A stretch of 64,000 nucleotides of DNA from Gemmatimonadota bacterium (GTDB lineage Bacteria; Gemmatimonadota; Gemmatimonadetes; Palauibacterales; Palauibacteraceae). The stretch is taken from NCBI GenBank assembly GCA_965116475.1, contig OZ220691.1, positions 3,488,001 to 3,552,000 of the forward strand. Direction: 5' to 3'. How positions within the stretch are numbered: the first letter of the stretch is position 1; every line of letters starts with the position of its first letter. The translations under genes were made by a program, and so were the position numbers. Below the pieces are notes generated by a model. It saw nothing but the letters and a program-made list of their open reading frames with translations, was not told the origin of the DNA and ran no database searches. Below are positions 38,428 to 54,697 of the stretch, in pieces.

Positions 38428-38795
38428 GGGGGCGACACGGCTTCGACGCGTGAACCGGAAGCCGCGGAAGCGTGCCGAGGTGCCCGGGGCCTCGTTAAAC
38501 ACCGGGAAACCTTTAGGTGCCAACGACGGTTTGGCTCTGGCTGCGTAAAACCACGTAGCCCGTCCCCGAGAGGTCCGGGCCCGAGGACCTCCCGACGGAC
38601 GTCGATGAATCGGGCTGGTCACCCCGGCGTGCCGTGAGCCGCGGGTGACGAGAGCACGGCGAGAGCCGCGCGCACGGCTGGTTTCGCAAGGGTTTGTTCG
38701 TGAACCCTCGCGGGACGAGACCTGATCACGGACTACGCACGTAGATGCCGTGGCGGATGGGCTCGCGGACGCGGGTTCGATTCCCGCCGCCTCCA
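38428..38795 (+). ncRNA. ssrA: tmRNA, tag peptide (A)ANDGLALAA* at 38519-38548
   Basis: 5' GGGGGCG pairs with 3' CGCCTCC-A including G3.U; T-arm GCGGG-TTCGATT-CCCGC; tag ends in ALAA; CCA not fully encoded. Confidence 0.95.
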
Positions 38796-38823
38796 CTATT
38801 GCCATGAGTGCAGTGCTCCGCCC

Positions 38824-42730: not shown

Positions 42731-42826
42731 GGGAGCGGATGGTGACTGGTGTCGCCTGCGGTCTTCAAAACCGTTACGGGGCGTTCGCGCGTCCCGGGTG
42801 GGTTCGATTCCCACACGTTCCCGCCA
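42731..42826 (+). tRNA. selC: tRNA-Sec (anticodon UCA)
   Basis: 6-bp D stem GGTGAC/GTCGCC, anticodon loop CTTCAAA, long variable arm, GTGGG-TTCGATT-CCCAC, G discriminator + CCA; selB nearby. Confidence 0.95.
42811..42826 (+). repeat. att core, left copy (3' end of tRNA-Sec)
   Basis: CCACACGTTCCCGCCA, identical to 53400-53415. Confidence 0.92.
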
Positions 42827-42848
42827 GATCATTAGCGAAGTGCTCTTA

Positions 42849-42903
42849 TAACAACGATTTACAGATGTTCAAGCGGGCGAGTACCCCACCGGGTACCCCA
42901 AAA
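42849..42903. promoter_or_regulatory. putative IHF site and integrase arm-type repeats, left end
   Basis: TAACAACGATTTA (1 mismatch to WATCAANNNNTTR); GTACCCCA at 42881 and 42893. Confidence 0.6.
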
Positions 42904-42916
42904 GTGGGAGTGTGAC

Positions 42917-43423
42917 GTGTCCGTGAGATCGCCCCTCCAAGACCCTGGGTCTTTCCGTTCATGGATTCAGGAGATGATCGAGGTGACCGGATTGGAGTGG
43001 GAGCCGAAAACGGTCCATGTCGTTCTCGCAGACCTTCCCTTGATCGCGAAGGCGACGTACTTCAACGCGTGGTTGGCGGGCCAGTTCTTCCGCGAAGATG
43101 ATGTGGGGTGGCTCTCGTCGGTGATCAGCGACATCGACCTGGAGTGGTGGCCGTTCGAGGAGAACGACCTTGGCGTTCTCCGACACCAGATCGAAAGCCA
43201 CTACAACGGCCAGTTTCCGCAAATCATGAGTGCTGCGCACGCGGAATGGACTACGTTCGCCGCCGATGTCCGCATGGCCTTCATCGCCTGCTTCACTGAC
43301 CACGGCTGCCGACGTTGCCCACCTTGGTGCCAAGCTCTCCGAGACGAGCTGGAGGCACGTGCGAACCCCAGCAAAGAACCCAATGACTCGGAGGGTGAGC
43401 CGGAAGCGCCGGCCTCTGGATAA
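42917..43423 (+). CDS. hypothetical cargo protein (start may be ATG 42974)
   Basis: Only credible + strand ORF in the element; CAGGAG before an internal ATG; converges on the structural operon. Confidence 0.6.
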   Translation: MSVRSPLQDPGSFRSWIQEMIEVTGLEWEPKTVHVVLADLPLIAKATYFNAWLAGQFFREDDVGWLSSVISDIDLEWWPFEENDLGVLRHQIESHYNGQFPQIMSAAHAEWTTFAADVRMAFIACFTDHGCRRCPPWCQALRDELEARANPSKEPNDSEGEPEAPASG

Positions 43424-43427
43424 GGAT

Positions 43428-43838
43428 CTACCCGCGCTTTCGCTGCCGGTCTTCGAGGGCAACCTCAGGATTGAGCCGGCGGCGGTCGATCCCGGCGAAA
43501 GGCCGGGTCTCTCCCGGCTGACGCTGGATGGCCAGCCACAGATCCGCCGCAGCGCGCCCGTACTTCTTCTCCAACCGCCCGCGCTTCAGCGCCAGCCTGG
43601 AGGCCTCCCGGCAGCGAGCGCAGAGACTGAAGTCCGCATCCTCGCGTTCCCGACCGCACCGGCACAGGCCGGCGGCACGGCGTGCTGCGTGGCTCTCGGC
43701 GATCGTGCCTCGATACGTTTCCCGGCAGGTCTTGCAGTAGATCCCGTGGGTGGCCGGAGCGCCGCCGCAGTTCGCACACAACCCATCGCGTTTCCAGCTG
43801 CGTCTCTTGTCCCGCACCCAGTCTGCGGCGTAGCTCAC
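43428..43838 (-). CDS. basic Cys-rich zinc-finger protein
   Basis: CANC...CKTC and CRC...CARC repeats; GTGA overlap with the upstream gene. Confidence 0.7.
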   Translation of the reverse strand: MSYAADWVRDKRRSWKRDGLCANCGGAPATHGIYCKTCRETYRGTIAESHAARRAAGLCRCGREREDADFSLCARCREASRLALKRGRLEKKYGRAAADLWLAIQRQPGETRPFAGIDRRRLNPEVALEDRQRKRG

Positions 43839-44188
43839 CTCGTGCGGGCTGCGAGCCTGGCGGCCTCGCTCTTCACGAGCGCGGTGGCGATGGCCTGACT
43901 GACGGCCTCCACGCCCTCGATGGATGGCTCCAGCCACTCGTACTTGCCCCCCAAGTGCTCGGCGACCTCGAGGAACAGGCCGGGGCGTTTGCCGGCTCCC
44001 ACGCGGGCCAACGTCGTGCTCACAACTTCGTAGGAGATCGAGCGGGCGGTCACACCCGTGTCCCTCGCGATCCGCCTGCGGGCGAACCTGACGACCTCCT
44101 CGGCCAGCTCCTCAACGATCTTCTCGGACATGCGGTCGAGCGCCCGATGGTGCTGCCGGAGGTTGGACTCGAACTTGACCGGCGTCAT
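43835..44188 (-). CDS. HK97 gp10-like neck/tail-completion protein
   Basis: A..DTG...RSI, FLE, WLEPSI pattern; ATGA overlap. Confidence 0.6.
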   Translation of the reverse strand: MTPVKFESNLRQHHRALDRMSEKIVEELAEEVVRFARRRIARDTGVTARSISYEVVSTTLARVGAGKRPGLFLEVAEHLGGKYEWLEPSIEGVEAVSQAIATALVKSEAARLAARTR

Positions 44189-44619
44189 ATCCCCAGCCTC
44201 TCCCGGATCGCCGCCGCCGAGTAGACGCGCGACCGGAAGACGATCCCGGCGTAACGGTGGCGACCGGCGTCGGCGATGTCCCAGCCGCCGGCGAGGGTGC
44301 GCCACGGGCCGCTCTGCAGGTCGGAGGTTCCAAGGTGGAAGCCGCGGAAGAATCGCTGGATGGCCTCGCGGACTTGGGCGGCGTCTCCCGGATCCCGGAA
44401 GGTCTCGACGGTGACGGCGACGCGGGCCAAGTAGCCCGGACTTTGGTCGATGGTCTCGAGGTCGCGGGAGCCGCCATCCTCCACAATGACGCGGATCTCG
44501 TCGGAGGTCTTCTCGAGTGGGCGCGAGGGCTGGCCGACGATCACGGTCACCACGTAATCCCCCGAGAACGCGGAGTCCAAACCGTCCCGAATCGTGGCCA
44601 GCACCTCGGCCTCAATCAT
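44185..44619 (-). CDS. putative tail terminator-like protein
   Basis: 144 aa alpha/beta pattern; position among neck genes (inference). Confidence 0.45.
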   Translation of the reverse strand: MIEAEVLATIRDGLDSAFSGDYVVTVIVGQPSRPLEKTSDEIRVIVEDGGSRDLETIDQSPGYLARVAVTVETFRDPGDAAQVREAIQRFFRGFHLGTSDLQSGPWRTLAGGWDIADAGRHRYAGIVFRSRVYSAAAIRERLGI

Positions 44620-44956
44620 CGATCTCCAGCCAGACCCGCACCGTGCCGCCGCGCTGAGGCTCGGCCTCGACCACCTTCCAGATCCGATCTCCGGACTCGA
44701 GCGTCACGTCCTCGGCGGTGACGTCACCCGTCCAGTCGCTGGGCATGAGATGGGCGGAGGTCTTCGATCTGGTCTCGCCGCCCGGCTGGGCGTCCTCGAA
44801 GAAGCGCGCCGAGGTGACGATGGCGCGCGTCTCGCGTGCCTCCAGTAGCGTTCCGGACATCTCCCTACCCATGGCGTCCAGCGCACCGCGTTCGCGCCGC
44901 GTGAGGGTCGCGGGGACGCCCAGCGCCTCGATCAGCGCGGGAGCCGGGGCTCTCAT
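44612..44956 (-). CDS. putative head-closure (head-tail joining) protein
   Basis: 114 aa beta-rich, D.TLESGDRIWKVV; follows portal with ATGA overlap. Confidence 0.5.
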   Translation of the reverse strand: MRAPAPALIEALGVPATLTRRERGALDAMGREMSGTLLEARETRAIVTSARFFEDAQPGGETRSKTSAHLMPSDWTGDVTAEDVTLESGDRIWKVVEAEPQRGGTVRVWLEIDD

Positions 44957-45984
44957 GCCAGTCCCGCCTTCTCCAGTGCCTCATCCAGAGACAGGCCGCT
45001 CTCGACGAACTGCTTCAGCGCGCGGCCTCGGGCGGCGAGATCGGACGCGGCGAGACCGCCGAAGGAGAACTCCAGCGAGGTCTCCAGCACGCGGGCGATC
45101 TCGTTCTGGACGCGCACTGCGACCGGCGCGACGCCGAGGAAGACGAACTGCCGGTAATCCTCCCTGCGCGTGGTCCCGTCTCCACCCGGCATCACGAGCG
45201 AAGCCGGGACGCCTGCGGCGCTGGCCACGGTCGAGATCGCATCGCGCCTCAGCGCGATCAGCGAGTCCGGAGGGTTCGCGCCCAGCCTGGCTGGCACGAG
45301 ATCGCGCCGTGGCGCTGAACCCGCGTCGCCCCAGCCGCCAGCTACGGTCTCCGTGAGGACGGTGCTCCCCTTGGCGTCTCGGATGTCGTCTCTGAGCGTG
45401 TCGAGATCGCTTGTCTCCGGTCCCTGCGGAACCGGGAGGAGATGGGCCGCCACGCCGCCGGCTTCTTGGCCCAGCCGCATCTCGAGGGCCGAGAGGAGAT
45501 CTCCCGAGAGACCGGCCAAGGGCGACAGGCTGCGCCACGGCTCGGCTGCTCGCGGTGCCCACATGAGGTGGATGACCGAGTCGCGAGGCATCCATCGCGT
45601 CTGGATCTTCGACGGGGCGGACGTGGTGACGTGGTACCGCCACGACGCGGGAGACGGGCCGCCCCAGACCGTCCAACTGCTCGCCACCGACAGCATCGGC
45701 GGGACGTCGAAGGCCAGGACGATCTCTCCCTGCAGGATGAGCTCCCGGCCGACGAGATCCAGCACCTCGGGCGTCACCAGCATCTTGGCGAGTTCGTCGC
45801 CCTCGACCTCGGCCGATGACAGCGCCCTCGCCCAGAGATCGCCGAGCGCCTGTGCGGTCCCGGTCTCGTTGACGCGACCTGCTGGGCTCTCGGAGCCGGA
45901 CGCCGACGCGGCGATCAGAGAGACCAGCGCATCGGTGTACGAACTCCGAACTTCCGCCGTCTTCCGCTGCCACGGGAGCCTCAT
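44953..45984 (-). CDS. phage portal protein (short HK97-like)
   Basis: ELILQGE, DSVIHL, WRSLSPL, VASAAGVPASLV, V.PVA..VQNEI.R.L. Confidence 0.78.
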   Translation of the reverse strand: MRLPWQRKTAEVRSSYTDALVSLIAASASGSESPAGRVNETGTAQALGDLWARALSSAEVEGDELAKMLVTPEVLDLVGRELILQGEIVLAFDVPPMLSVASSWTVWGGPSPASWRYHVTTSAPSKIQTRWMPRDSVIHLMWAPRAAEPWRSLSPLAGLSGDLLSALEMRLGQEAGGVAAHLLPVPQGPETSDLDTLRDDIRDAKGSTVLTETVAGGWGDAGSAPRRDLVPARLGANPPDSLIALRRDAISTVASAAGVPASLVMPGGDGTTRREDYRQFVFLGVAPVAVRVQNEIARVLETSLEFSFGGLAASDLAARGRALKQFVESGLSLDEALEKAGLA

Positions 45985-46286
45985 AGCGCGAGACCTCGGC
46001 GCTTGACCCACTGAGACAGCAAAGACGCCGCGCCAGACGCTCGCAGGGCAGCTCTGGAGGCCGCGACGTACTCGGTCTCCACGTCACCCACCCGGACGCG
46101 CCTGGCGGCCGCTGGGGCGTCTCTTAGGTACGCCGCCACCCGGATCGCGGCTTCGTTCTCCACCGCCGCAGGCGGTTCTCCCTCGCCGGTGTGTTTCTCG
46201 ACAAGACCGGCGGCGACCTCGGCAAGACGCGTTGCGTTGTCACCTCCCCCGAGGGCCGAGGCCACCACCGATCGCTCTACAGCCAT
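45981..46286 (-). CDS. head-tail adaptor (HK97 gp6/SPP1 gp15-like)
   Basis: 101 aa helical; PPAAVENEAAIRVAAYL, SGAASLLSQWVKRR; CAGGAGG RBS. Confidence 0.65.
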   Translation of the reverse strand: MAVERSVVASALGGGDNATRLAEVAAGLVEKHTGEGEPPAAVENEAAIRVAAYLRDAPAAARRVRVGDVETEYVAASRAALRASGAASLLSQWVKRRGLAL

Positions 46287-47215
46287 ATGCGCCTCCTGCG
46301 GCGGGCCGGGCGCGTGATCTCCAGCGGAGCGAGTTCTCCCGTTTCGCCGGTCACCAGCGCCAGCTCGATTGCGCGGACGTCCATCTCGGAGACGTCGTAG
46401 AGGTCTCCCGCGACCTCGGCCACCGAGGTCTCCTCCGGTGCCCACGGGCGCACGCTCCAGAATCCCGTCTCGGAGGAATCGAGGAAGGCGCGTCCGGCGT
46501 CGTTGTCGGTGATCTGGTCGATCTCGATCCGGAGTTCATCGTCGAGAACCCGGAGCCTCAGTCCGGCACCGGTGGCGGCGACCGGCTCGGAGAATCTTCC
46601 AGACATGAACGCCGTGATCGTCCGCCGTCCCTCGGCTGCCTCGCGGAGCGCTTTGTCCAGCGCCTTCCGCCCGATGCGGATCCGCGCACAGCCGGTCTTG
46701 CACCTGCACGGCAGCTGGCGGCCCAGCGGCACCCGACCGGAGACCCGCGTCCCGCCGATCGTGCGCCGGCGCAGCTCCACCCGGTTCGGAAACACCGGCG
46801 AATCCACCAATCCCAGACCGAGGAGACGTCCGCGCTCGATGACGCGGACTCCGCCCTCGGTCTGCTCGCTCAGCGCATCGAACTCGAGACTCGTGCCCGT
46901 GAGCTTCCCGGCGGCCACCAGCGCTCGGATCTCGGGCGTGATCTGCGCGCGGAACTCCATGCCGCCGGCGGTGGTGTCCCGGAACCGGAGAGAGCCCTCT
47001 GGGTGGAAGCTGGAGTCGATCCCATGTCGGAAGTCGTGCTGGACGTTCAAGAGGACGCGCACCTCGGACGCTGGCCCGAACGCGCCGGGCTCGAACCGCT
47101 CCCCAAGGCCGTGCGGCGTGTTCGCGGGCGGGGCGGTGATCCCGGGATCGAACACCATCCCGGAGATCTCGCCGGCGTCCGCGCTCAGCCCGGAGACGAA
47201 ACGGAACTCGCTCAC
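46277..47215 (-). CDS. HK97-type prohead protease with a second protease-like domain
   Basis: ERFEPGAF, LNVQHD (His), GTSLEF (Ser), LGLVDSPVFP; C-terminal half repeats the pattern. Confidence 0.78.
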   Translation of the reverse strand: MSEFRFVSGLSADAGEISGMVFDPGITAPPANTPHGLGERFEPGAFGPASEVRVLLNVQHDFRHGIDSSFHPEGSLRFRDTTAGGMEFRAQITPEIRALVAAGKLTGTSLEFDALSEQTEGGVRVIERGRLLGLGLVDSPVFPNRVELRRRTIGGTRVSGRVPLGRQLPCRCKTGCARIRIGRKALDKALREAAEGRRTITAFMSGRFSEPVAATGAGLRLRVLDDELRIEIDQITDNDAGRAFLDSSETGFWSVRPWAPEETSVAEVAGDLYDVSEMDVRAIELALVTGETGELAPLEITRPARRRRRIWL

Positions 47216-47454
47216 CAGAGGGCGAGGATCGTGGCCGTCGAGGAGGCGCGCACCGCCGAGACGGCGACCGGAATCACCATGATCGACGCCGTCACTGTGA
47301 GCGCCGGCGCGTCCGCATCATCGTCCGGCAACCGGATCGTCAGATCGCCGTCGCTGAGGACGATGAACGCCCGCGCCGGGGGATCGAACACGCTCTCCTG
47401 CCCGGCGACGGTCGCCTCGCTCGCCTGCGCCGAGTAGATGGCCCAACGGCTCAA
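47212..47454 (-). CDS. head spike base / decoration protein, RcGTA Rcc01079-like
   Basis: 80 aa; PARAFIVLSDGDLTIRL...IPVAVSAVRASSTATILALW; TTGA overlap with the capsid gene. Confidence 0.6.
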   Translation of the reverse strand: MSRWAIYSAQASEATVAGQESVFDPPARAFIVLSDGDLTIRLPDDDADAPALTVTASIMVIPVAVSAVRASSTATILALW

Positions 47455-48692
47455 GTGACGAACTTCAGCCTGGCGAAGTTGGACGCCCGCGGGAGCTTGA
47501 ATCCCCAGCTGTACTGCAACGTCAGCGAGATCTCATCCGAGGCTGCCTTGGTGTATGGATCTCGAATCAGCCGGCCCTCCCGCCAGACGCACGCGACGCC
47601 GGCGTTCACGATCCCGCGCTTGCGTCCGATGAAAGCGCCGAACTTGCCGTTCGATGTGGCCGTCTCGATGTCGCCGCGCACCATCCAACTGAGGCCGTTC
47701 GCCATCAGGAATTGCCTCAGCGTCATGTTGTCGGCGGCCGAGTTGATGACGGTGGAGTGCCACAACGTGTTCGCGCCGACGGAGGCCACGATCGCCAGAT
47801 CTCCGGGGCTGGCGGCGTGCTTTCCGTCGATCAGCTCGGCGAACTTCACCAGCGTCTCCGGCCCCTTGATCTTGTCCGCCTGCTTGATCGTCTTCTCGAC
47901 CATGTCGGCGGCGGTCTGGAGACCGGTGATGTCGGCGGCGTTCTCGTTCGCCCCGTCGTCTCCCAGGAAGACCGCGCGGTCGATCCCCTCGGCCATCGCC
48001 ATCCGCAGATCGCGCCGGAGCGCCTGCTCGAGGCCGGGGATCCTGTCCGCGTCGACGCCGTTGAACACGGCGCGTGCGCGGTTGCCGGTCGGCTTGATCT
48101 CGGTGACGCCGATCGTCCACGCGGCGTCTGCCGCGTCCTCGGCCCGGCCGCGCTGCGCCGCCGAGGCCCCCGCCGTCGTGACCGGGTAGCTCGCGATCCC
48201 CGGCGCGCAGGAGGCGAACGTCACGCCCAGATGCATCGCGGCGGTGTCAGCGAACAGCCGGTCGATCCATGGGCGCTGGACGACCGTCGACTCGGCGTCC
48301 GTCGAGGCGCGAACCTCGGCTGGCGTCGGCTCGTCGAGAAGGAGCTCCAGCGGGAATGACCGGCGGCCCATGCCGAACGCGTCGTTCAGCTCGCCGGCGG
48401 CTCCGTCCACGCCGCGTCCGTCCATCGCGGCCTCGAAGTAGCCGCCCACGTCCACCCGGCGGCGAATGGCCCGGATCTCGGCCGCCTCGCCGTCCTCCAC
48501 TGTGGGCTCCGGCTCCTCGGCCTGCGCGGCGATCAGCGCCCGGCGCTTGGTCTCGACGGAGCGCAGCTCGGCGGTGAGCTTGTCCACCTCCTGCTGCTGC
48601 TCGTCGGAGAGATCTCCGGCGGTCTGGCCGAGATCGTTGAGTTGCTGCCGGAGCTCGGACGAACGGAGCTCGGCGCGTTGCAGATCGGTCAT
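47451..48692 (-). CDS. major capsid protein, HK97 fold with N-terminal delta domain
   Basis: Coiled-coil N-terminus; E.ALRRDL..AMAE.IDRAVFLGDDG...ITGL; LIRDPYT. Confidence 0.85.
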   Translation of the reverse strand: MTDLQRAELRSSELRQQLNDLGQTAGDLSDEQQQEVDKLTAELRSVETKRRALIAAQAEEPEPTVEDGEAAEIRAIRRRVDVGGYFEAAMDGRGVDGAAGELNDAFGMGRRSFPLELLLDEPTPAEVRASTDAESTVVQRPWIDRLFADTAAMHLGVTFASCAPGIASYPVTTAGASAAQRGRAEDAADAAWTIGVTEIKPTGNRARAVFNGVDADRIPGLEQALRRDLRMAMAEGIDRAVFLGDDGANENAADITGLQTAADMVEKTIKQADKIKGPETLVKFAELIDGKHAASPGDLAIVASVGANTLWHSTVINSAADNMTLRQFLMANGLSWMVRGDIETATSNGKFGAFIGRKRGIVNAGVACVWREGRLIRDPYTKAASDEISLTLQYSWGFKLPRASNFARLKFVT

Positions 48693-48810
48693 TCTCTCGT
48701 CCCTTCGCGCGGCCAGGCAGCCACGCTCCTTCCGGGACGAAGAAGGGCCGCCATAGCTCAGTTGGTGCGTTCTCCAATTCGCTAAGGCGACCCCGAAAGG
48801 TCTCCGCAAT

Positions 48811-49050
48811 TTAGGGTCCGGCCAGCTCCTCTACAAGCTGCCTCCAGCCGGCGTCTTCCTCCCGTCGGTGGCGGGCGAAATGGCACGAGACGCAGAGCGT
48901 CCGGAGGTTCGATGGATCGTCGGTGCCGCCGTCTCTCAGTGGCGTCTCGTGGTGGACCTCGAGCCGTCCTGGCTGGCCGCAGTCCCGGCAGCGGTGGCCG
49001 TCTCTCTGGAGGATCTTCCGGCGCAACTGAGCACCGGCGCGGCCTCTCAG
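48811..49050 (-). CDS. HNH endonuclease (terminase-associated); start codon unclear
   Basis: RDGHRCRDCG...LEVHH..PL..GG.DD..NL..LC..CH...H. Confidence 0.85.
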   Translation of the reverse strand: MRGRAGAQLRRKILQRDGHRCRDCGQPGRLEVHHETPLRDGGTDDPSNLRTLCVSCHFARHRREEDAGWRQLVEELAGP

Positions 49051-50519
49051 ACGACGGCGGATCGAAGTCTCCGAGACGGACGGGACCGACGCCGATGCGC
49101 CTCGGCGACGCACAAGGCCAACGCCACGGCGAGATCGTCTCTGCGCCGGAGGGTGGTACGGCGGATCTTGGCGTTCCCGGCCTCGTCCGTAGCCGTCTTG
49201 GCGTTCGCCAGGCACACCCTCAGGGCGAGATTCGTTGGTGCGGCCAGCCAGTCTGCAGCGGCAAGCCGGAGGCGGCGCAGATCGTTCGCGCCGTCCTTGA
49301 AACCCATCCCGCGCAGCTTCAGCGGCACCGACTGACCGAGCGTGGCCAACGCCTCGCGGATCGAGGCCTCCCGCCACCGGTCGGCTACGATCATCGCCGG
49401 GACGCCCCACCGCTCGAACGCCTCGGTCAGCACACCCCCGACATCGACCTCGAACGTCCCGTGCAGGGACAGCTCCTTCCTGGCTCGCATCTTCTCATAC
49501 AGGGAGCCGACGTTGTGCTCCTTTCCGCGCCGCATGAGGTCTGGATCTCGCGGGAAGACCAGAAAGCCGTCCGCGGCTCCCGTGGCCGGCCAGCAGACGG
49601 CCGCGCCGGTGGCCTGCGTGGTGGAGAGATCGAGACCGAGCACCGGGCGACCCGAGCGCAGCGCAGTCCGTCCCTCGCAGCGCGTCCACGTCCCGGCGGA
49701 CAAGACCTGCTCCTCGGCTACGCCGATCCCGCCGAGGTTCAAGTGGAGCTGCAGGTATCTGGCCAGCGCCTCGGGACTCTCTCTGGCCAGCTTCGCCTGC
49801 TTCTTCACCTCGCGGGCGAGGTGCGGCCAGAACTTCATCGATGGATTCGCTCTGTGCATGGCCGCCGCGCGAAATGGATCCTCGTCTTCCTCGGCCGCGT
49901 AGCAGATCGCCCGCTCCTTCTGGAGTTCGGCCTCGAAGGGATGGCCGGAGCCTGCCGGCGGTCGCGTCCCGGTGTAGATGATCCGCGCCTCCATCTTGGC
50001 CTTCGCCGTGTCGAGCGCGGCGATCATCTCGTCCACCGTTGGCCAGCTCGTGACCTCGTCGCAGACGATGAGCGCGGGCCGCAGACCCATGGCGCGCTTC
50101 GGGTCGCTTCCGATGGCCAACACCCGGCGGCCCGTCTTGAGGTCTCGGATCTCCGAATGCTGGAGGCTGTCGGCGATCCTGTACCGCTTCCGGTCTCCCA
50201 GCTTCACTACCTGCTCCAGATACCGGCGGGTGTCTTGGTAGACGATCCGCGTCTGCCGGTGGCTCGCGGCGACGAGAATGATGTCGGAGCCCTTCGGGGC
50301 TAGCTCCAGAACGGGATCGAAGTACGCTCCCGCCACGATTGACGCCCAAGCGCTTTTTCCGTTGGCGCGGGCCATGCTCAGCGCGAAGTCGCCGGGAGTA
50401 TCGAGACGCTTCCACGCTTTTCTCTGCCACGGCATCGGCTGGAGCGCCCTCCCGGCCATCGGACCGTCCAGAACGGTCAGACCAGATGCCCACCGGGAAA
50501 CCTTCGTCGAGGTCAACAT
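49047..50519 (-). CDS. terminase large subunit
   Basis: Walker A ARANGKS, Walker B LIVCDE, ANPS, nuclease VLGLDLS, ADRWR, DDLAVAL. Confidence 0.9.
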   Translation of the reverse strand: MLTSTKVSRWASGLTVLDGPMAGRALQPMPWQRKAWKRLDTPGDFALSMARANGKSAWASIVAGAYFDPVLELAPKGSDIILVAASHRQTRIVYQDTRRYLEQVVKLGDRKRYRIADSLQHSEIRDLKTGRRVLAIGSDPKRAMGLRPALIVCDEVTSWPTVDEMIAALDTAKAKMEARIIYTGTRPPAGSGHPFEAELQKERAICYAAEEDEDPFRAAAMHRANPSMKFWPHLAREVKKQAKLARESPEALARYLQLHLNLGGIGVAEEQVLSAGTWTRCEGRTALRSGRPVLGLDLSTTQATGAAVCWPATGAADGFLVFPRDPDLMRRGKEHNVGSLYEKMRARKELSLHGTFEVDVGGVLTEAFERWGVPAMIVADRWREASIREALATLGQSVPLKLRGMGFKDGANDLRRLRLAAADWLAAPTNLALRVCLANAKTATDEAGNAKIRRTTLRRRDDLAVALALCVAEAHRRRSRPSRRLRSAVV

Positions 50520-50618
50520 ACCGGAGGCTCTGCTGCAGAAGCGTGACTACGCCAACGGTGTCCGGCGGTCACGGAGGGCTCCGAACAGGGGTCCCCGAGG
50601 AGCTGGGGCGGGCCACAT

Positions 50619-51065
50619 TCATTCGCCCGGCAGGCGCGGTACGTAGACGGCCCATAGCCACGGCGCTCCGTCACGGCGCGCGGCCGTCACGCGATGTCGT
50701 CCAAGCAGCACTTCAACCGGGCGCGAACTATCGTCGCCCAGGACGACGATCGGCGGGCCGTACTGACCACCGGACAGGTTCTGGAGCCGCTTCTCGTCCA
50801 AGCGCGATACGTCGAATTCCATGATGCGAGTCAGCGGTAGCCCTCTCCTTGGGAGCGTCTCCGACATCGCCTCCATGATCCGCGTCTTCGTGTTGGCGAC
50901 AGCCGCCGCCACGTCCGGCCAGTCTTCAGCGGTAGTGTCTTGCTCTTCGAGGAACCACCGCTCCAACCGGCGAAACCAACGGAGCAATTCGTCGGCTTCG
51001 CAGTCTTCACCTTGCAGCCGGTTCTCCACTTGGTCCCGGTATCGGAGGATGCTGGTATTGGACAT
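50619..51065 (-). CDS. protein with a C-terminal ParB/Sulfiredoxin-like domain
   Basis: PPIVV...VLLGRHRVTAA resembles the PI.V...DG.HR..A motif; TGATG overlap. Confidence 0.6.
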   Translation of the reverse strand: MSNTSILRYRDQVENRLQGEDCEADELLRWFRRLERWFLEEQDTTAEDWPDVAAAVANTKTRIMEAMSETLPRRGLPLTRIMEFDVSRLDEKRLQNLSGGQYGPPIVVLGDDSSRPVEVLLGRHRVTAARRDGAPWLWAVYVPRLPGE

Positions 51066-51400
51066 CACCCCAGACCGTACTCGTCCCACGCATGGACGAT
51101 CTCGAAGAGCGCACCGATCTCAGACTTCGTGAGCGCCCGGAGGTCGTCCAATCCACCGTCACCTTCGACCGACTTTGGTATCAGACGCCCGAGTTCGCCC
51201 GCCCACTCCAGCAGCTGCGCGACCGACACGCCGTGCCGTTCACAGCGCCCGTACACGTAGTACACCTGCTTCTCGGTTGGTGACTCCGGGTGCAACGCAT
51301 TCTTCGCGATGATCGTCTTATCTGTGGACTCTACCGCATCCCGCCAGCTCCCTGTGGGCTGCCCAGAGCTGCCGTTGTCTCCCTCACGTGTCCCTGTCAT
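51065..51400 (-). CDS. hypothetical protein, first gene after the long leader
   Basis: Strong GGGAGGAG RBS before ATG 51400; PTEKQ and LTKSEIGAL motifs. Confidence 0.65.
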   Translation of the reverse strand: MTGTREGDNGSSGQPTGSWRDAVESTDKTIIAKNALHPESPTEKQVYYVYGRCERHGVSVAQLLEWAGELGRLIPKSVEGDGGLDDLRALTKSEIGALFEIVHAWDEYGLG

Positions 51401-51875
51401 CGATCTCCTCCCTCTCTCCAGTCGCCGGGGCGCACCTCTCCCTATTTTGTTCTCGGCCTCGCCGGTTCTCCCTCTAATTGTCTGAAGCGATGACCGGCCC
51501 GGTGAGGGACAGCAGCAGACCGAGGGCCAGCCCGGGCCGTTGCGAAAGGGAGGCATGGTTTCGTCTCCCACGGTATCCGAGTTGGTGTCTCGGCCTGCTG
51601 AACATGACCTGGCGGAGCCGGGCATAGCAGGCTGTGGGAGCTGCTTCCCTCCGGCCTCTCGACCGGAGCCAGCCGCCTCGCTCTCCCACTTCGACCTCGA
51701 GGCCTCATCTCGGCGCTATTGGCTGGATGCCCTTCCCGGTGCGCCACTCTCTCGCATTCCCGCGCCGGTGGGTGGACCCTCTCCTCCACGGTTCAGCGTT
51801 CCAACGATCCCACGCATAACACGACCGGCCGATTCTCGCCAATGGTTCGGTCAGCGTCGGAGGATGTGAATCATG

Positions 51876-51938
51876 GATGCAAGAAACCCCGAGACGAGAG
51901 GTCTTTTGGGAGAGCTTCGCCTCGGGGCTTCCTGCACC
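51876..51938 (-). other. 22-bp RNA hairpin downstream of the integrase (terminator or regulatory RNA)
   Basis: All four non-Watson-Crick positions are A.C on the + strand, i.e. G.U on the - strand transcript. Confidence 0.7.
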
Positions 51939-51973
51939 GGCCCAAGGAAGAATCCTCGAGCGCGTCCACAATC

Positions 51974-53197
51974 TCAGTCGCTTGTCACCGGCGCAACGTA
52001 CTCGGCCCATGCCTCCATCACCGGACGCCGACGCTCGAGGAGATCGCTGCGCTGGTAGGCCCGCACGACGGCGTTTCGCTCGACATGACCGAGGATCGCC
52101 TCGGCCACTGCGAAATCGACGCCCGTATCTTCACACCAACTGCGCATGGAGGTTCGCAAACCGTGCGGCGTGGCCGGGACGTCGAGACGCCTGAGGAGCT
52201 GGAGAAACGCCATCTTGCTGAGGGGCCGATCAGCGCCAGCGCGCGGGCGAGAGGAAGGGAAGACCCAACCGGTCCCGCCCCAGCGCGCCTGGGCGTCTTC
52301 TAGCACCCTCAGGGCGCAATCTGCGAGCGGTACGCGGTGAGACCTACCTGACTTCGTCCGGAGGCTCGGAATCGTCCAGATCGCGTTCTCCAGGTCGATC
52401 TCGTCCCACGTCATCTCTCGGACCTCGCCGGTCCGAACTCCCGTCAGCGCCAAGAACGTGAACGCCGAGCGCGTCACGCGGTCGGCGGTGGACGCCTCGA
52501 CCATCTCGAGCAGGCCGGCGATCTCGCTGTGGTGCAGGGCCGGGTGGTGACGCTTCACGCGGCTGGCGTGACGCGGCAGCACCGTGAGGAGGTGGCGGCC
52601 CGCCGGGTTGTCGGTTCGGTGTCCCATCGCGACGGCCATCTCGAACGTCCTGGCCAGCCGAGCGCGGACCCTCCGGGCGGTCTCCTGCTTCTCCTCCCAG
52701 AAGCCGCGGGCCTGAAGCACCCGCGCCACGTCGGCGGACGTCACCTCGTCAACGCGCATCGCGAGCAGCGGATCGGCGTATCTGGTCACCGAGTTTCGCC
52801 ACTGGCGCTCGCTATCGGGAGACCTCCAGCGGGGTTTCTCCCGGGAGATCACCGCCTCGAAGACCTCGCCCACCGTCGGGACGACCCCCTTCGGCTGCTC
52901 GGTGGCCGGAGGCTTAGCCTTCCGCCGGCGCGGATCCTCTCCGGCTTCGACCGCCGCGAAGTTCCGGAACGCCTGTTCTCGGGCCTCCCTGAGGCTCACC
53001 GCCGGCCACGTTCCCAAGCCGAGGGTGGTTTGCTTGCCGTTGATCTTCACCTTCTGTATCCACCGGCGTCTGGCGGTTCGGTCCGACGTGGGCCGGACGA
53101 GGAGTGAAAGGCCGGCGTATCCGACGGCGTACTTTCGTGGGCCGCCTAGCGTCCCGATCTTCTTCTCGGTGAGGCGCACCAAGGGGCGTTTCGGCAT
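51974..53197 (-). CDS. int: tyrosine integrase, P4-like with N-terminal arm-binding domain
   Basis: GLG.WPAVSLREAR arm domain; TGVRTGE, HRVPL, HGLR, ILGH, AYQRSD catalytic motifs. Confidence 0.95.
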   Translation of the reverse strand: MPKRPLVRLTEKKIGTLGGPRKYAVGYAGLSLLVRPTSDRTARRRWIQKVKINGKQTTLGLGTWPAVSLREAREQAFRNFAAVEAGEDPRRRKAKPPATEQPKGVVPTVGEVFEAVISREKPRWRSPDSERQWRNSVTRYADPLLAMRVDEVTSADVARVLQARGFWEEKQETARRVRARLARTFEMAVAMGHRTDNPAGRHLLTVLPRHASRVKRHHPALHHSEIAGLLEMVEASTADRVTRSAFTFLALTGVRTGEVREMTWDEIDLENAIWTIPSLRTKSGRSHRVPLADCALRVLEDAQARWGGTGWVFPSSRPRAGADRPLSKMAFLQLLRRLDVPATPHGLRTSMRSWCEDTGVDFAVAEAILGHVERNAVVRAYQRSDLLERRRPVMEAWAEYVAPVTSD

Positions 53198-53215
53198 GGG
53201 GATCTCCGTTCGCTA

Positions 53216-53347
53216 TGGGGTACTCGTGCCTGCGAGTACCCCAAAACATGCCCCAAGTACCCCAAACTCGCAACTCTAGAGGAGGCATGGAGTTCCGCAT
53301 GAACATCCGACAACAGGTTCCGTATAATACATGATATCAACGAGTTG
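53216..53347. promoter_or_regulatory. integrase arm-type repeats, putative outward sigma70 promoter and IHF site, right end
   Basis: AGTACCCCA once inverted and twice direct in 53216-53266; TGAACA-17-TATAAT at 53300-53328; TATCAACGAGTTG at 53335-53347 matches WATCAANNNNTTR. Confidence 0.65.
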
Positions 53348-53390
53348 TGAATCATCCAGAAGTCCAATGAACATCAAGGGATTCGCGATT

Positions 53391-53921
53391 GTGCGATCAC
53401 CACACGTTCCCGCCACCCTCGTGCTTGCGGCCGCGCTTCTGTCCGGGCTGGCCCTGGACCCGTTGCCGCTGCGCGCGCAGGATCCGCCGCCTCCCGTCGT
53501 CCCCGACTCGGCCGCCGCCGAAACGAGCCCTGTCGCCGACACGACGGGCCGGCGCCCGCCCATCTCCCCCCTCGGCGCCTTCGGACGCTCCCTGGTCCTT
53601 CCGGGCTGGGGACAACTGGAGGTCGGACGCCCCGCCCGCGGCGCTTTCTACTTCGCCGCCGAGTCCGTCTTTCTGTTCATGGTCTTCAAGTCCGACGCGC
53701 GGCTCTCCGCCGCGAAGGAGGAGATGCCGCCGAACGAAGAGCGGATCTCCAACCGCACGGGGCAGCGGGAGAACTGGATCGTTCTGGCCGGGTTCTTCGC
53801 CTTCCTGAGCGGCCTCGACGCCTGGGTGTCCACGCAGTTCTGGGACTTCGAGCCCTCGATCGGTCCGCCCGCCGATGGGTCCGTCGGGATCGCGCTCGGT
53901 TTCAAGGTCGATTTCCCCTGA
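53391..53921 (+). CDS. exported/membrane protein, DUF5683-like (start uncertain: GTG 53391 or 53421)
   Basis: Signal peptide-like N-terminus; SP..A..RSLVLPGWGQ; LDAWV. Confidence 0.7.
   Translation: MRSPHVPATLVLAAALLSGLALDPLPLRAQDPPPPVVPDSAAAETSPVADTTGRRPPISPLGAFGRSLVLPGWGQLEVGRPARGAFYFAAESVFLFMVFKSDARLSAAKEEMPPNEERISNRTGQRENWIVLAGFFAFLSGLDAWVSTQFWDFEPSIGPPADGSVGIALGFKVDFP
53400..53415 (+). repeat. att core, right copy
   Basis: CCACACGTTCCCGCCA duplicates the tRNA-Sec 3' end. Confidence 0.92.
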
Positions 53922-53953
53922 AGGAGACCGGCGGCCCGCCCCGCCGTCGGGAC

Positions 53954-54697
53954 TCAGCCCTCGCCGGGACCGCGGTATGACTCCAGGCGGATCTCGTCCG
54001 CCGTCACGACGGCGAAACTGTTGTGATGGAGCCAGTCCCCGGAGTTGAGGTAGTACCTCCCCGGCGCGAGTTCCGTGACTTCCGGCCGGTGCGAATGCCC
54101 GAACACGACCAGGTCCACATCGTCGTGGGCGGCCAGCACCTCCGCCGCGTGCCGCGCGAGAACCGAAGCCCGGGGCGACTCCTTCGGGGCCCCTCCCGCC
54201 TGGGCCCGCCGCGTCCCGCTGGCGAGCCGCGCGAGCGGGAGTCCGAGGTCGGGGTGGACCCACCGGAAGAGTCCGCGCCCCACCGGACTGCGCGCGGCCC
54301 GGCGCAGAACCCGGTAGCCCCGGTCGGCGGGGCCGAGTCCGTCGCCGTGTGCGATGTACGCCCGCCGCCCCGCGATCCGTCGCCGCGCCGGCTCTTCGAG
54401 GACTTCGACGCCGACTTCGTCGCGGAGAAAACTGCCCCCCCACGCGTCGTGGTTCCCGCCCATGAAGAGGACGGGCATGCCGCGTTCGACGAGTCTTCGC
54501 AGGCGGGCGAGCACGTCGAGTTGACCGCGTGGGATCACCTGGCGGTATTCGAACCAGAAGTCGAACAGGTCGCCGTTGATGAGAAGTTCGTCGCCCCAGC
54601 GGTCCGCCTCTTCGAGGAAGGCGAGAAACGCGCGCGCGTTCTCCTCGGCCACGGCCCCGAGGTGGATGTCGGACACGATGACGGTGCGTTCTGACAT
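53954..54697 (-). CDS. lpxH: UDP-2,3-diacylglucosamine diphosphatase-like metallophosphoesterase
   Basis: SDIHLG, GDLFDFW, GNHD, AHGD, FGHSH, NSGDW. Confidence 0.8.
   Translation of the reverse strand: MSERTVIVSDIHLGAVAEENARAFLAFLEEADRWGDELLINGDLFDFWFEYRQVIPRGQLDVLARLRRLVERGMPVLFMGGNHDAWGGSFLRDEVGVEVLEEPARRRIAGRRAYIAHGDGLGPADRGYRVLRRAARSPVGRGLFRWVHPDLGLPLARLASGTRRAQAGGAPKESPRASVLARHAAEVLAAHDDVDLVVFGHSHRPEVTELAPGRYYLNSGDWLHHNSFAVVTADEIRLESYRGPGEG

Follow-up and report, generated by a model that had tools for sequence, protein, structure and literature searches.

We found that an element in a Gemmatimonadota genome is integrated site-specifically in the tRNA-Sec gene and has a complete operon for the head, DNA packaging and the neck but no tail tube or lysis genes. 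We consider it probable (roughly 60%) that the element, dormant but intact, belongs to a family of capsid-forming phage satellites of about 10 kb that evolved independently, with a life cycle like that of the cf-PICIs. The first-pass annotation of this DNA had proposed a tailless, capsid-forming satellite in a host outside the lineages from which such elements are described, and this proposal has held up; no description of such elements was found for the hosts concerned.

Integration site and state of the element

The window (the whole 64,000-nucleotide stretch that was analysed, to which all positions refer) contains the host tRNA-Sec gene (42731..42826, + strand), which is the integration target and the sole Rfam match. 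The 16-bp att core at the tRNA 3′ end (42811..42826, +) is repeated perfectly at 53400..53415 (+), these are the only two occurrences in the 3.62-Mb genome, and a circle of 10,589 bp is predicted between them, in agreement with the initial reading. A GAGTACCCCA-type motif recurs just inside both element ends, with two copies at 42878..42900 and three (one inverted) at 53216..53266, and these may be integrase arm sites. The tyrosine integrase (51974..53197, −), recognised with Pfam, PHROGs and motifs, consists of the domains Arm-DNA-bind_3 (arm binding), Phage_int_M and Phage_integrase, and the catalytic motifs reported at first reading are present (R/K/HxxR/H/Y). Just downstream of it, a strong hairpin (51878..51936, −; z=-7.7) is a candidate terminator or retro-regulator. 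The integrase is followed by 570 bp without a convincing ORF, and no iterons were found in the gap between int and terL. Two further integrase loci in the host genome had no family head genes.

Assembled contigs from two studies contained the element in the integrated state. The first-pass annotation had advised looking for the attP junction and the empty attB, and neither an attP junction nor an exact empty site was seen in the contigs of two runs, in which the depth of the element was that of the right flank. One joint (X2, 42826-54243, with a 27-nt side) was not an exact empty site and was left uncounted. A helper phage was looked for in 36 genomes of the genus, and these searches, of limited sensitivity, detected neither a tape measure nor Phage_tail_2 or baseplate J. 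A genome search with phrog_9 matched the element alone, and one with PF03354 was discarded because it missed the element's own TerL. A phrog_2 match on G017:C3 was rejected as a helper, being a host-like fragment.

Head, packaging and neck genes

The structural genes all lie on the − strand. The terminase large subunit (TerL; 49047..50519; Pfam, PHROGs) belongs to the HK97/HK022 class and has the Walker A/B and nuclease Asp motifs. It is followed by an HNH endonuclease (48811..49113, with a start at 49113 or 49026; PF01844, E=3e-12) and an HK97-fold major capsid protein with an N-terminal helical delta domain (47451..48692). None of 50,697 phage records matched the capsid, its profile gave no sequence match in the PDB, and a scan of viral contigs with the element's TerL gave nothing. 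The next gene encodes a putative head-spike base resembling Rcc01079 of RcGTA (47212..47454), the match to NF048002 (E=7e-5) being at 23 bits, below the curated cut-off of 28; against PDB sequences this ORF had no meaningful match. The prohead protease (46277..47215; PHROGs, NCBIfam) appears by eye to have a second, degenerate protease-like domain after the ExR motif. The portal (44953..45984) was recognised by PF04860 (E=4e-10).

The gp6-like head-tail adaptor (45981..46286) is conserved across the family and was identified with a family HMM; it had no direct library match itself, and one relative matches phrog_137 Ad1 (E=1e-3). The head-closure (stopper) protein Hc1 (44612..44956; phrog_82, E=3e-5) is followed by a tail terminator (44185..44619) assigned from its predicted structure (pLDDT 70), which has the lambda gpU / GTA terminator fold. 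The Foldseek top match had E=4e-3, and the best VIA matches were the GTA structure 6tba (Z 8.0, in the range that the comparison tool rates as middling) and lambda gpU (Z 7.8). The ESM Atlas gave a lead for the terminator only (0.94). A terminator was detected in just 2 of the 37 delimited elements described below, and the terminator alignment found no further one among the fetched loci; a putative Mu-type terminator of the relative L043 had no meaningful match among PDB sequences. The last neck gene encodes an Ne1 / HK97-gp10-like tail-completion protein (43835..44188; PF04883, E=9e-5; phrog_5, E=2e-4). The element therefore has two head-proximal tail genes.

From the capsid gene through the zinc-finger ORF, neighbouring ORFs overlap by 4-10 nt at all 8 junctions, and internal stops are absent from the ORFs of the element, so the coupling of the structural genes and the lack of obvious pseudogenes were as first described. 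The remaining ORFs are a 168-aa orphan cargo ORF (42917..43423, +) with no match in Pfam, PHROGs or NCBIfam; the Cys-rich zinc-finger ORF (43428..43838, −), a candidate regulator with a weak DZR match and weak relatives in 14 loci; a 148-aa ORF (50619..51065, −) whose C terminus appears ParB/sulfiredoxin-like from its alignment and a weak match to phrog_1033 (E=0.01), and which has one homolog; and a 111-aa orphan ORF (51065..51400, −) at the position of alpA/rep in relatives, for which the ESM Atlas gave nothing (0.82).

The absences listed by the first-pass annotation were borne out in the following searches. No tail-tube, tape-measure, baseplate or lysis gene was found when 17 ORFs were compared with Pfam and PHROGs and 15 with NCBIfam, and six-frame searches with family HMMs gave no AlpA or replicase, whereas the control element L135 scored. 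A small terminase (TerS) had no match in Pfam, PHROGs or NCBIfam, in 30 elements terL was preceded by neither a P27 motif nor a conserved ORF, and the EcCIEDL933 and MulchRoom TerS used as queries found nothing; a very divergent TerS may still be present.

A family of relatives and its likeness to known systems

Syntenic elements of similar size, which the first-pass annotation had suggested looking for, were found in number: 37 att-bounded or circular relatives were delimited (8,947-13,231 bp, median 10,231), and IMG/VR gave 307 further TerL matches. Capsid homologs of the family number over a thousand, and its loci in other phyla run into the hundreds. The hosts span at least five phyla and include Gemmatimonadota, Chloroflexota, Acidobacteriota, Binatia and Alphaproteobacteria; a cultured carrier is Pseudorhodobacter turbinis S12M18, with a 10,645-bp element. 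The distribution is patchy (13 of 401 genomes of the phylum). Three of the 37 are circular or tandem forms, and no integrase was found in the circles of 9.2-10.1 kb. In several relatives, the adaptor is fused to fibre-like extensions of 250-650 aa, and a gene of the baseplate-spike type is present in the relative L025.

When IMG/VR loci were selected solely by their TerL, 78 of 78 proved to have the family HNH and capsid as well. Among the best 80 contigs, 79 were at most 18.1 kb long, the lone 42-kb contig having a separate P2-type capsid and terminase, and 270 and 143 accessory ORFs contained no tail-tube, tape-measure or lysis families. The closest relatives are thus not full-length prophages. 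Relaxed selection was likewise not found: dN/dS was 0.11-0.33 in close pairs of relatives, which shows that the family is under purifying selection in those pairs, whereas for the host copy dS was near saturation and the ratio uninformative.

A replication-type gene is present in 28 of the 37 delimited elements counting weaker candidates (23 without them), and an AlpA-like gene in 25, which suggests that the family works like cf-PICIs. Both occur in L135, a sister element that is likewise in tRNA-Sec and whose integrase is the nearest by score. The lack of replication genes is therefore specific to the copy and is not a trait of the type, and the suggestion of an even more reduced type of satellite did not stand; the Streptomyces satellite phage MulchRoom (14.8 kb), which is capsid-forming and has an integrase, an adaptor and a stopper but no primase, was already known to spread without a replicase, with a tail thought to derive from a helper (PMC10690885). 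MulchRoom differs from the family in being linear, with 1.6-kb terminal repeats, a TerS, a separate scaffold and no HNH-protease module, and family HMMs found at most trace similarity (best E=0.005).

The family and the cf-PICI EcCIEDL933 share integration at a tRNA or other specific site, a tyrosine integrase, and their own HK97-type capsid, protease, portal, adaptor, closure protein, HNH and TerL, and neither has tail tube or lysis genes. Family HMMs recognise the EcCIEDL933 integrase, AlpA, TerL, HNH, protease (E=3e-26), portal and closure proteins; its capsid is barely detectable (E=0.02) and its TerL is 23% identical. In a comparison that covered, of the three described cf-PICI clades, that of EcCIEDL933, the family capsid and TerL were on a branch apart from EcCIEDL933. 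The family is smaller (about 10 kb versus a cf-PICI median of 14 kb), and its order is terL-hnh-capsid-protease-adaptor-portal, with the portal after the adaptor, which also differs from HK022, whereas the cf-PICI order is capsid-protease-portal-connectors-hnh-terS-terL; no TerS was found in the family. Most relatives share AlpA and a primase/helicase with cf-PICIs. The host copy has the integrase and chromosomal att sites and the shared head, neck and packaging genes, but no AlpA/MerR/Stl regulator, primase-replicase or small terminase, and it adds Ne1, the terminator and the spike base; of the tail and holin genes that the cf-PICI model forbids, no tube, tape measure or holin was found in it, but the terminator and Ne1 are present. 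By manual inventory, it reaches at most 8 of the 11 core components of the SatelliteFinder cfPICI model, where 9 are required. On this count, a full match to cf-PICIs, which had been named as evidence against a new type, does not apply to the host copy, whereas typical relatives do reach 9. In cf-PICIs, tail compatibility is set by the adaptor and connector (10.1101/2025.02.11.637232).

The 15.8-kb extrachromosomal capsid-forming satellite cf-PISP TG54 of Vibrio, with par/rep plasmid functions (PMC13230959), is comparable to the family's circles, but it is nested in the gammaproteobacterial cf-PICI capsid clade. Three further candidates did not qualify as matches: VEIMEs, which lack capsid genes (PMC9618062), EPIPs, which have a tape measure and a serine integrase (PMC12822802), and mini-viruses without a portal (PMC13669383).

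Proposed life cycle and alternatives

By analogy with cf-PICIs, infection by a tailed phage would lead to excision of the 10.6-kb circle by the integrase, and the element's own capsid, protease and portal would form a small head, probably T=4 because of the genome size. TerL and HNH would cut and package the circle using a borrowed or unrecognisable small terminase, the adaptor and stopper would close the head, and the tail and lysis would come from the helper. The terminator and tail-completion protein of the host copy may cap nascent helper tail tubes, so that both sides of the head-tail joint would be satellite-made and tails would be diverted inside the co-infected cell. Because the host copy lacks AlpA and a replicase, its induction and replication would be provided by the helper, by a relative resident in the same host or by the two orphan ORFs.

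It is rather unlikely, although the strongest of the alternatives, that this copy is stranded, having lost or exchanged its alpA-rep arm so that it can no longer be amplified, with head genes that have so far not decayed. The replication-type genes of most delimited elements, L135 included, the lack of an excision signal with the identical integrated state in two studies, and the ORF-poor 570 bp after the integrase are consistent with such a loss, but neither a broken ORF nor a trace of alpA/rep is present, eight more of the delimited elements have no replicase that could be recognised, MulchRoom spreads without one, and homologs elsewhere reach 84-86% for the capsid and spike base, 66% for the terminator and 55% for the ParB-like ORF.

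Terminators and Ne1 proteins are known to act only on a tail tube in siphophage assembly, which makes it improbable that DNA is delivered by heads that take no tail from a helper or that the heads benefit the host, whether they carry spikes or fibres for attachment to cells or to a helper virion or form a domesticated GTA-like unit. The GTA-type spike base, the GTA terminator as best fold match, the fibre-like adaptor extensions of several relatives and the lack of a detected tailed prophage in the host genus point in that direction. RcGTA, however, brings a tail of its own, is not known to have an integrase or att sites, and packages host DNA, and GTAs are fixed, vertically inherited loci. 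The integrase, variable tRNA sites, patchy distribution and tightly conserved size fit packaging of the element itself, and the GTA-like unit suggested at first reading is therefore unlikely.

That the element is a deletion remnant of a full-length prophage is largely refuted and highly improbable: a tail operon normally comes after Ne1 and terminator genes, and TerL is of the HK97/HK022 class, but the att site at each end is intact, dozens of elements from several phyla repeat the size and gene order, the portal position is unlike HK022, the capsid is unmatched among phage records, and relatives are under purifying selection.

Previously described capsid-forming satellites come from Gammaproteobacteria, Firmicutes and a few systems of actinophages. 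A satellite reading of the element adds a lineage and host range, none of the members examined having a recognisable TerS, and, in the host copy, a full neck that extends to the tail terminator and tail-completion protein together with a putative GTA-type head-spike base; a capsid-forming satellite without a replicase was already published as MulchRoom (PMC10690885). We tentatively suggest, as a possibility that we hold with some doubt, a further independent and very widespread satellite lineage that packages without its own small terminase and crosses phyla by neck-module swaps, in which the host copy would supply a terminator and completion protein for tail capture and borrow replication, while others may re-aim stolen tails via fibre-like adaptor domains or a spike gene. 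Many loci of the family have probably been filed as small 'phages' or as defective prophages. The family raises the questions of how an HK97-type motor selects DNA without TerS and whether ownership of the terminator alters tail piracy, and the cultured carrier P. turbinis S12M18 makes it testable.

Boundaries and gene content of the tRNA-Sec element

The perfect 16-bp repeats at 42811-42826 and 53400-53415 occur only as this pair in the 3.62-Mb genome, correspond to the 3′ end of tRNA-Sec, and, as the first-pass annotation had claimed, bound a unit of 10,589 bp, whose GC content is 67% vs 69% for the host. Five copies of a 10-11-nt motif lie immediately inside both ends and are putative integrase arm sites, as expected for such sites. 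The minus strand carries, in this order, a tyrosine integrase with an arm domain, a pronounced hairpin (z=-7.7) and a pair of orphan ORFs, of which the second is weakly ParB-like in its C-terminal part; these are followed by large terminase TerL, HNH, capsid, an 80-aa ORF, protease, adaptor, portal, head-closure protein, a 144-aa ORF, an HK97-gp10/Ne1 (tail-completion) protein and a zinc-finger ORF. The plus strand has a single orphan ORF. All eight junctions from the capsid to the zinc-finger gene overlap by 4-10 nt and no interrupted ORF was found in the element, in agreement with the intact, overlapping structural ORFs first described. Except for the integrase, no element gene had a second match in the host genome. 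Two more P4-type integrase loci there (G000:C1:2673401-2674507 and 3298691-3298945, on the host contig) are without family head genes, and a tmRNA gene (38428-38796, tag ANDGLALAA) 4 kb to the left of the element has no island.

The predicted capsid structure (pLDDT 76) includes a helical delta domain at its N-terminus and resembles HK97-fold capsids at 17% identity or less; tblastn against 50,697 phage records gave zero capsid matches. The 144-aa ORF, modelled together with five homologs (pLDDT 70), matched tail terminators (best Z 8.0, rmsd 3.2, 115 aligned), and out of 48,161 chains the top 18 were all neck, cap or terminator entries of phages, GTAs or injection systems, or what we take to be their known homologs. 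For the 80-aa ORF the match was to the spike-base model of RcGTA, with E=7e-5 and a score under that model's cut-off. By eye, the ExR motif of the protease resembles a motif closing the capsid delta domain, and behind it lies a second, degenerate protease-like domain, present at 46277-47215 and in 24/29 long family proteases. In an alternative arrangement, a small AAA_33 P-loop gene lies ahead of the protease (L027:11225-11656 and other loci).

Six-frame searches of the element with an AlpA HMM and six replicase-type HMMs, all built from relatives, gave no match, whereas the positive control L135, a sister element, scored 1e-15 or better. No recognisable small terminase (TerS) was found in the element either, as had been claimed. 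L135 (6085-16648), from another family of the host class, is also in tRNA-Sec and has AlpA and a Rep-like gene; its integrase is the best-scoring relative of the focal integrase (44%).

In assembled contigs from one study (X1, possibly the run behind the assembly), a single unitig covers 42800-54053 at a depth of 37.5, with flank depths of 38-43 on the right and 50-51 on the left; in those from a second study (X2), the element is integrated at the identical site with no listed differences. The attP junction and exact empty site, which the first-pass annotation had proposed to look for, appeared in neither set of contigs, from which rare variants are lost. Searches of the 36 genomes of the genus for tape-measure, Phage_tail_2 and baseplate J genes came back empty, although divergent genes can be missed, and Phage_capsid matches were family members only. 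Therefore, the helper is probably a non-resident phage.

Relatives, hosts and spread

Among 8,000 scored candidates there were 1,152 capsid homologs, and among the matches listed the longest contig was 8-12 kb for 40/120. An alignment gave 55 genome, 4 viral and 17 metagenome loci. Leaving aside two duplicates, truncated loci and those lacking a repeat, 37 of 97 element loci were delimited, by a tRNA-anchored repeat (26), another direct repeat (8) or as circles or tandem copies (3). Repeats as short as 10-14 bp could have arisen by chance. They span 8,947-13,231 bp (median 10,231). Gene counts are partly circular and lower bounds, because the HMM seeds were drawn from the same elements: capsid 37/37, protease 36, portal 35, integrase 34, TerL 34, HNH 31, adaptor 28, AlpA-like 25, replicase 23 (28 with weaker candidates), closure 12, Ne1 11 and terminator 2. 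The claimed lack of AlpA and replicase stands for the focal copy and not for the family, in which replication genes are missing from a minority of members besides this one.

Three circular members of 9.2-10.1 kb (L018, L075, L076), in which no integrase was found, carry either a D5-type helicase or a plasmid Replicase/PriCT gene and are satellite-plasmid forms. The L018 unit (9,605 bp, on G017:C2 of another genome) is present 2.2 times at 100% identity, and two IMG/VR records bear 99-bp terminal repeats.

A scan of IMG/VR with TerL alone confirmed 307 loci. Contigs were 18.1 kb or shorter for 79 of the best 80; the exception (42 kb) also carries a separate P2-type capsid, terminase and tape measure. 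The 78 newly analysed loci all had family HNH and capsid, with protease in 73, portal in 64, integrase in 41 and AlpA in 27. One member, adjoining a P2-like prophage, has 22-bp iteron-like repeats upstream of terL (L236:523-777).

By record titles, hosts are Alpha- and Gammaproteobacteria, Gemmatimonadota, Chloroflexota, Acidobacteriota and Binatia, and from bin names many loci are presumably sponge-derived. Among cultured bacteria, the alphaproteobacterium Pseudorhodobacter turbinis S12M18 has a 10,645-bp member, flanked by imperfect repeats of 71 bp. The focal host belongs to the class Gemmatimonadetes, judging by its kinship to a genome that has a locus titled Longimicrobiales. Within the host phylum, 13/401 genomes matched, all of them in two families (3/29 and 9/70, plus the focal genome), with no match among 301 genomes of ten other families. 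Transfer across phyla is old rather than recent, because the closest cross-phylum pairs are only 67% (TerL) and 64% (capsid) identical.

Tail genes, neck variation and selection

Neither 270 accessory ORFs (260 of 284 listed plus 10 others) nor 143/189 from viral loci matched a tube, tape-measure, baseplate or lysis family in PHROGs, bar one 'tail protein' match of 21 aa (E=0.009) within a replication gene. Among 128 ORFs run against Pfam there was a single terminator (L042) and a single PF18352 protein; the latter, immediately ahead of terL (L025:6690-7331), has what we take to be a Gp138-type baseplate-spike domain.

In seven loci the gp6-like adaptor is lengthened by 250-650 Gly/Thr-rich, fibre-like residues without a Pfam match (L075:3484-5778, L090:1857-4145, L048:5068-6954, L031:12107-13753, L077:2864-4387, L069:11403-12533, L053:12178-13230); these extensions may serve the neck of the satellite as collar fibres or adhesins. 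Neck-completion cassettes also differ (L033:13552-15070, L043:13486-15056, L064:13890-14642, L042:3906-5270); on visual inspection they are either SPP1-like or a pairing of lambda gpZ-like with Mu gp37-like genes. Among these, the terminator was library-confirmed in L042 only. L080 and L091 have the family capsid and protease alongside an unrelated lambda-type portal (phrog_21), L091 with an unrelated terminase (phrog_15) as well, and represent packaging-module swaps.

Nei-Gojobori dN/dS was computed for capsid, TerL, portal, protease and integrase from up to ten closest pairs per gene, several not independent. Values were 0.11-0.33, apart from 0.62 in a pair where TerL is split; two of the capsid pairs were free of substitutions. 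In the selection analysis proposed for the structural genes, comparisons with the focal copy gave uninformative values of 0.28-0.92, with dS near saturation.

Relation to known satellites

Family HMMs matched the E. coli cf-PICI EcCIEDL933 in integrase (4e-50), TerL (5e-42), protease (3e-26), AlpA (6e-14), portal (4e-11), HNH (7e-10) and closure (3e-6), whereas its capsid reached only 0.02. In a TerL tree, 26 family rows, with host phyla intermixed, separated from EcCIEDL933 and four phages at 100/100, subject to a long-branch warning and a thin sample of five outgroups. cf-PICIs are described as having 11 core components, of which every detected element has at least nine, the gene order capsid-protease-portal-connectors-hnh-terS-terL and a median size of 14 kb (PMC10085698; 10.1101/2022.09.08.507074; EcCIEDL933 map), and their tailless heads pick up free tails via an adaptor and connector (10.1101/2025.02.11.637232). 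Also described are MulchRoom, capsid-forming without a primase (PMC10690885 and its map), the plasmid-form satellite cf-PISP (PMC13230959) and a T=4 capsid capacity of about 10 kb (PMC13669383). VEIMEs (PMC9618062), EPIPs (PMC12822802) and portal-less mini-viruses (PMC13669383) differ from the family. The literature searched, mostly without subscription papers, held no description of the family or of any terminator-encoding capsid-forming satellite.

The element is real and would function like a cf-PICI, but it lies outside the cf-PICIs by the published core set. The first-pass proposal of a new type of capsid-forming satellite is narrowed: the most fitting classification is a new lineage of such satellites. 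What specialists would find new is that no TerS can be recognised across the family, that its neck modules are interchangeable, reaching the tail terminator in the focal copy, and that its hosts are so broad a group.
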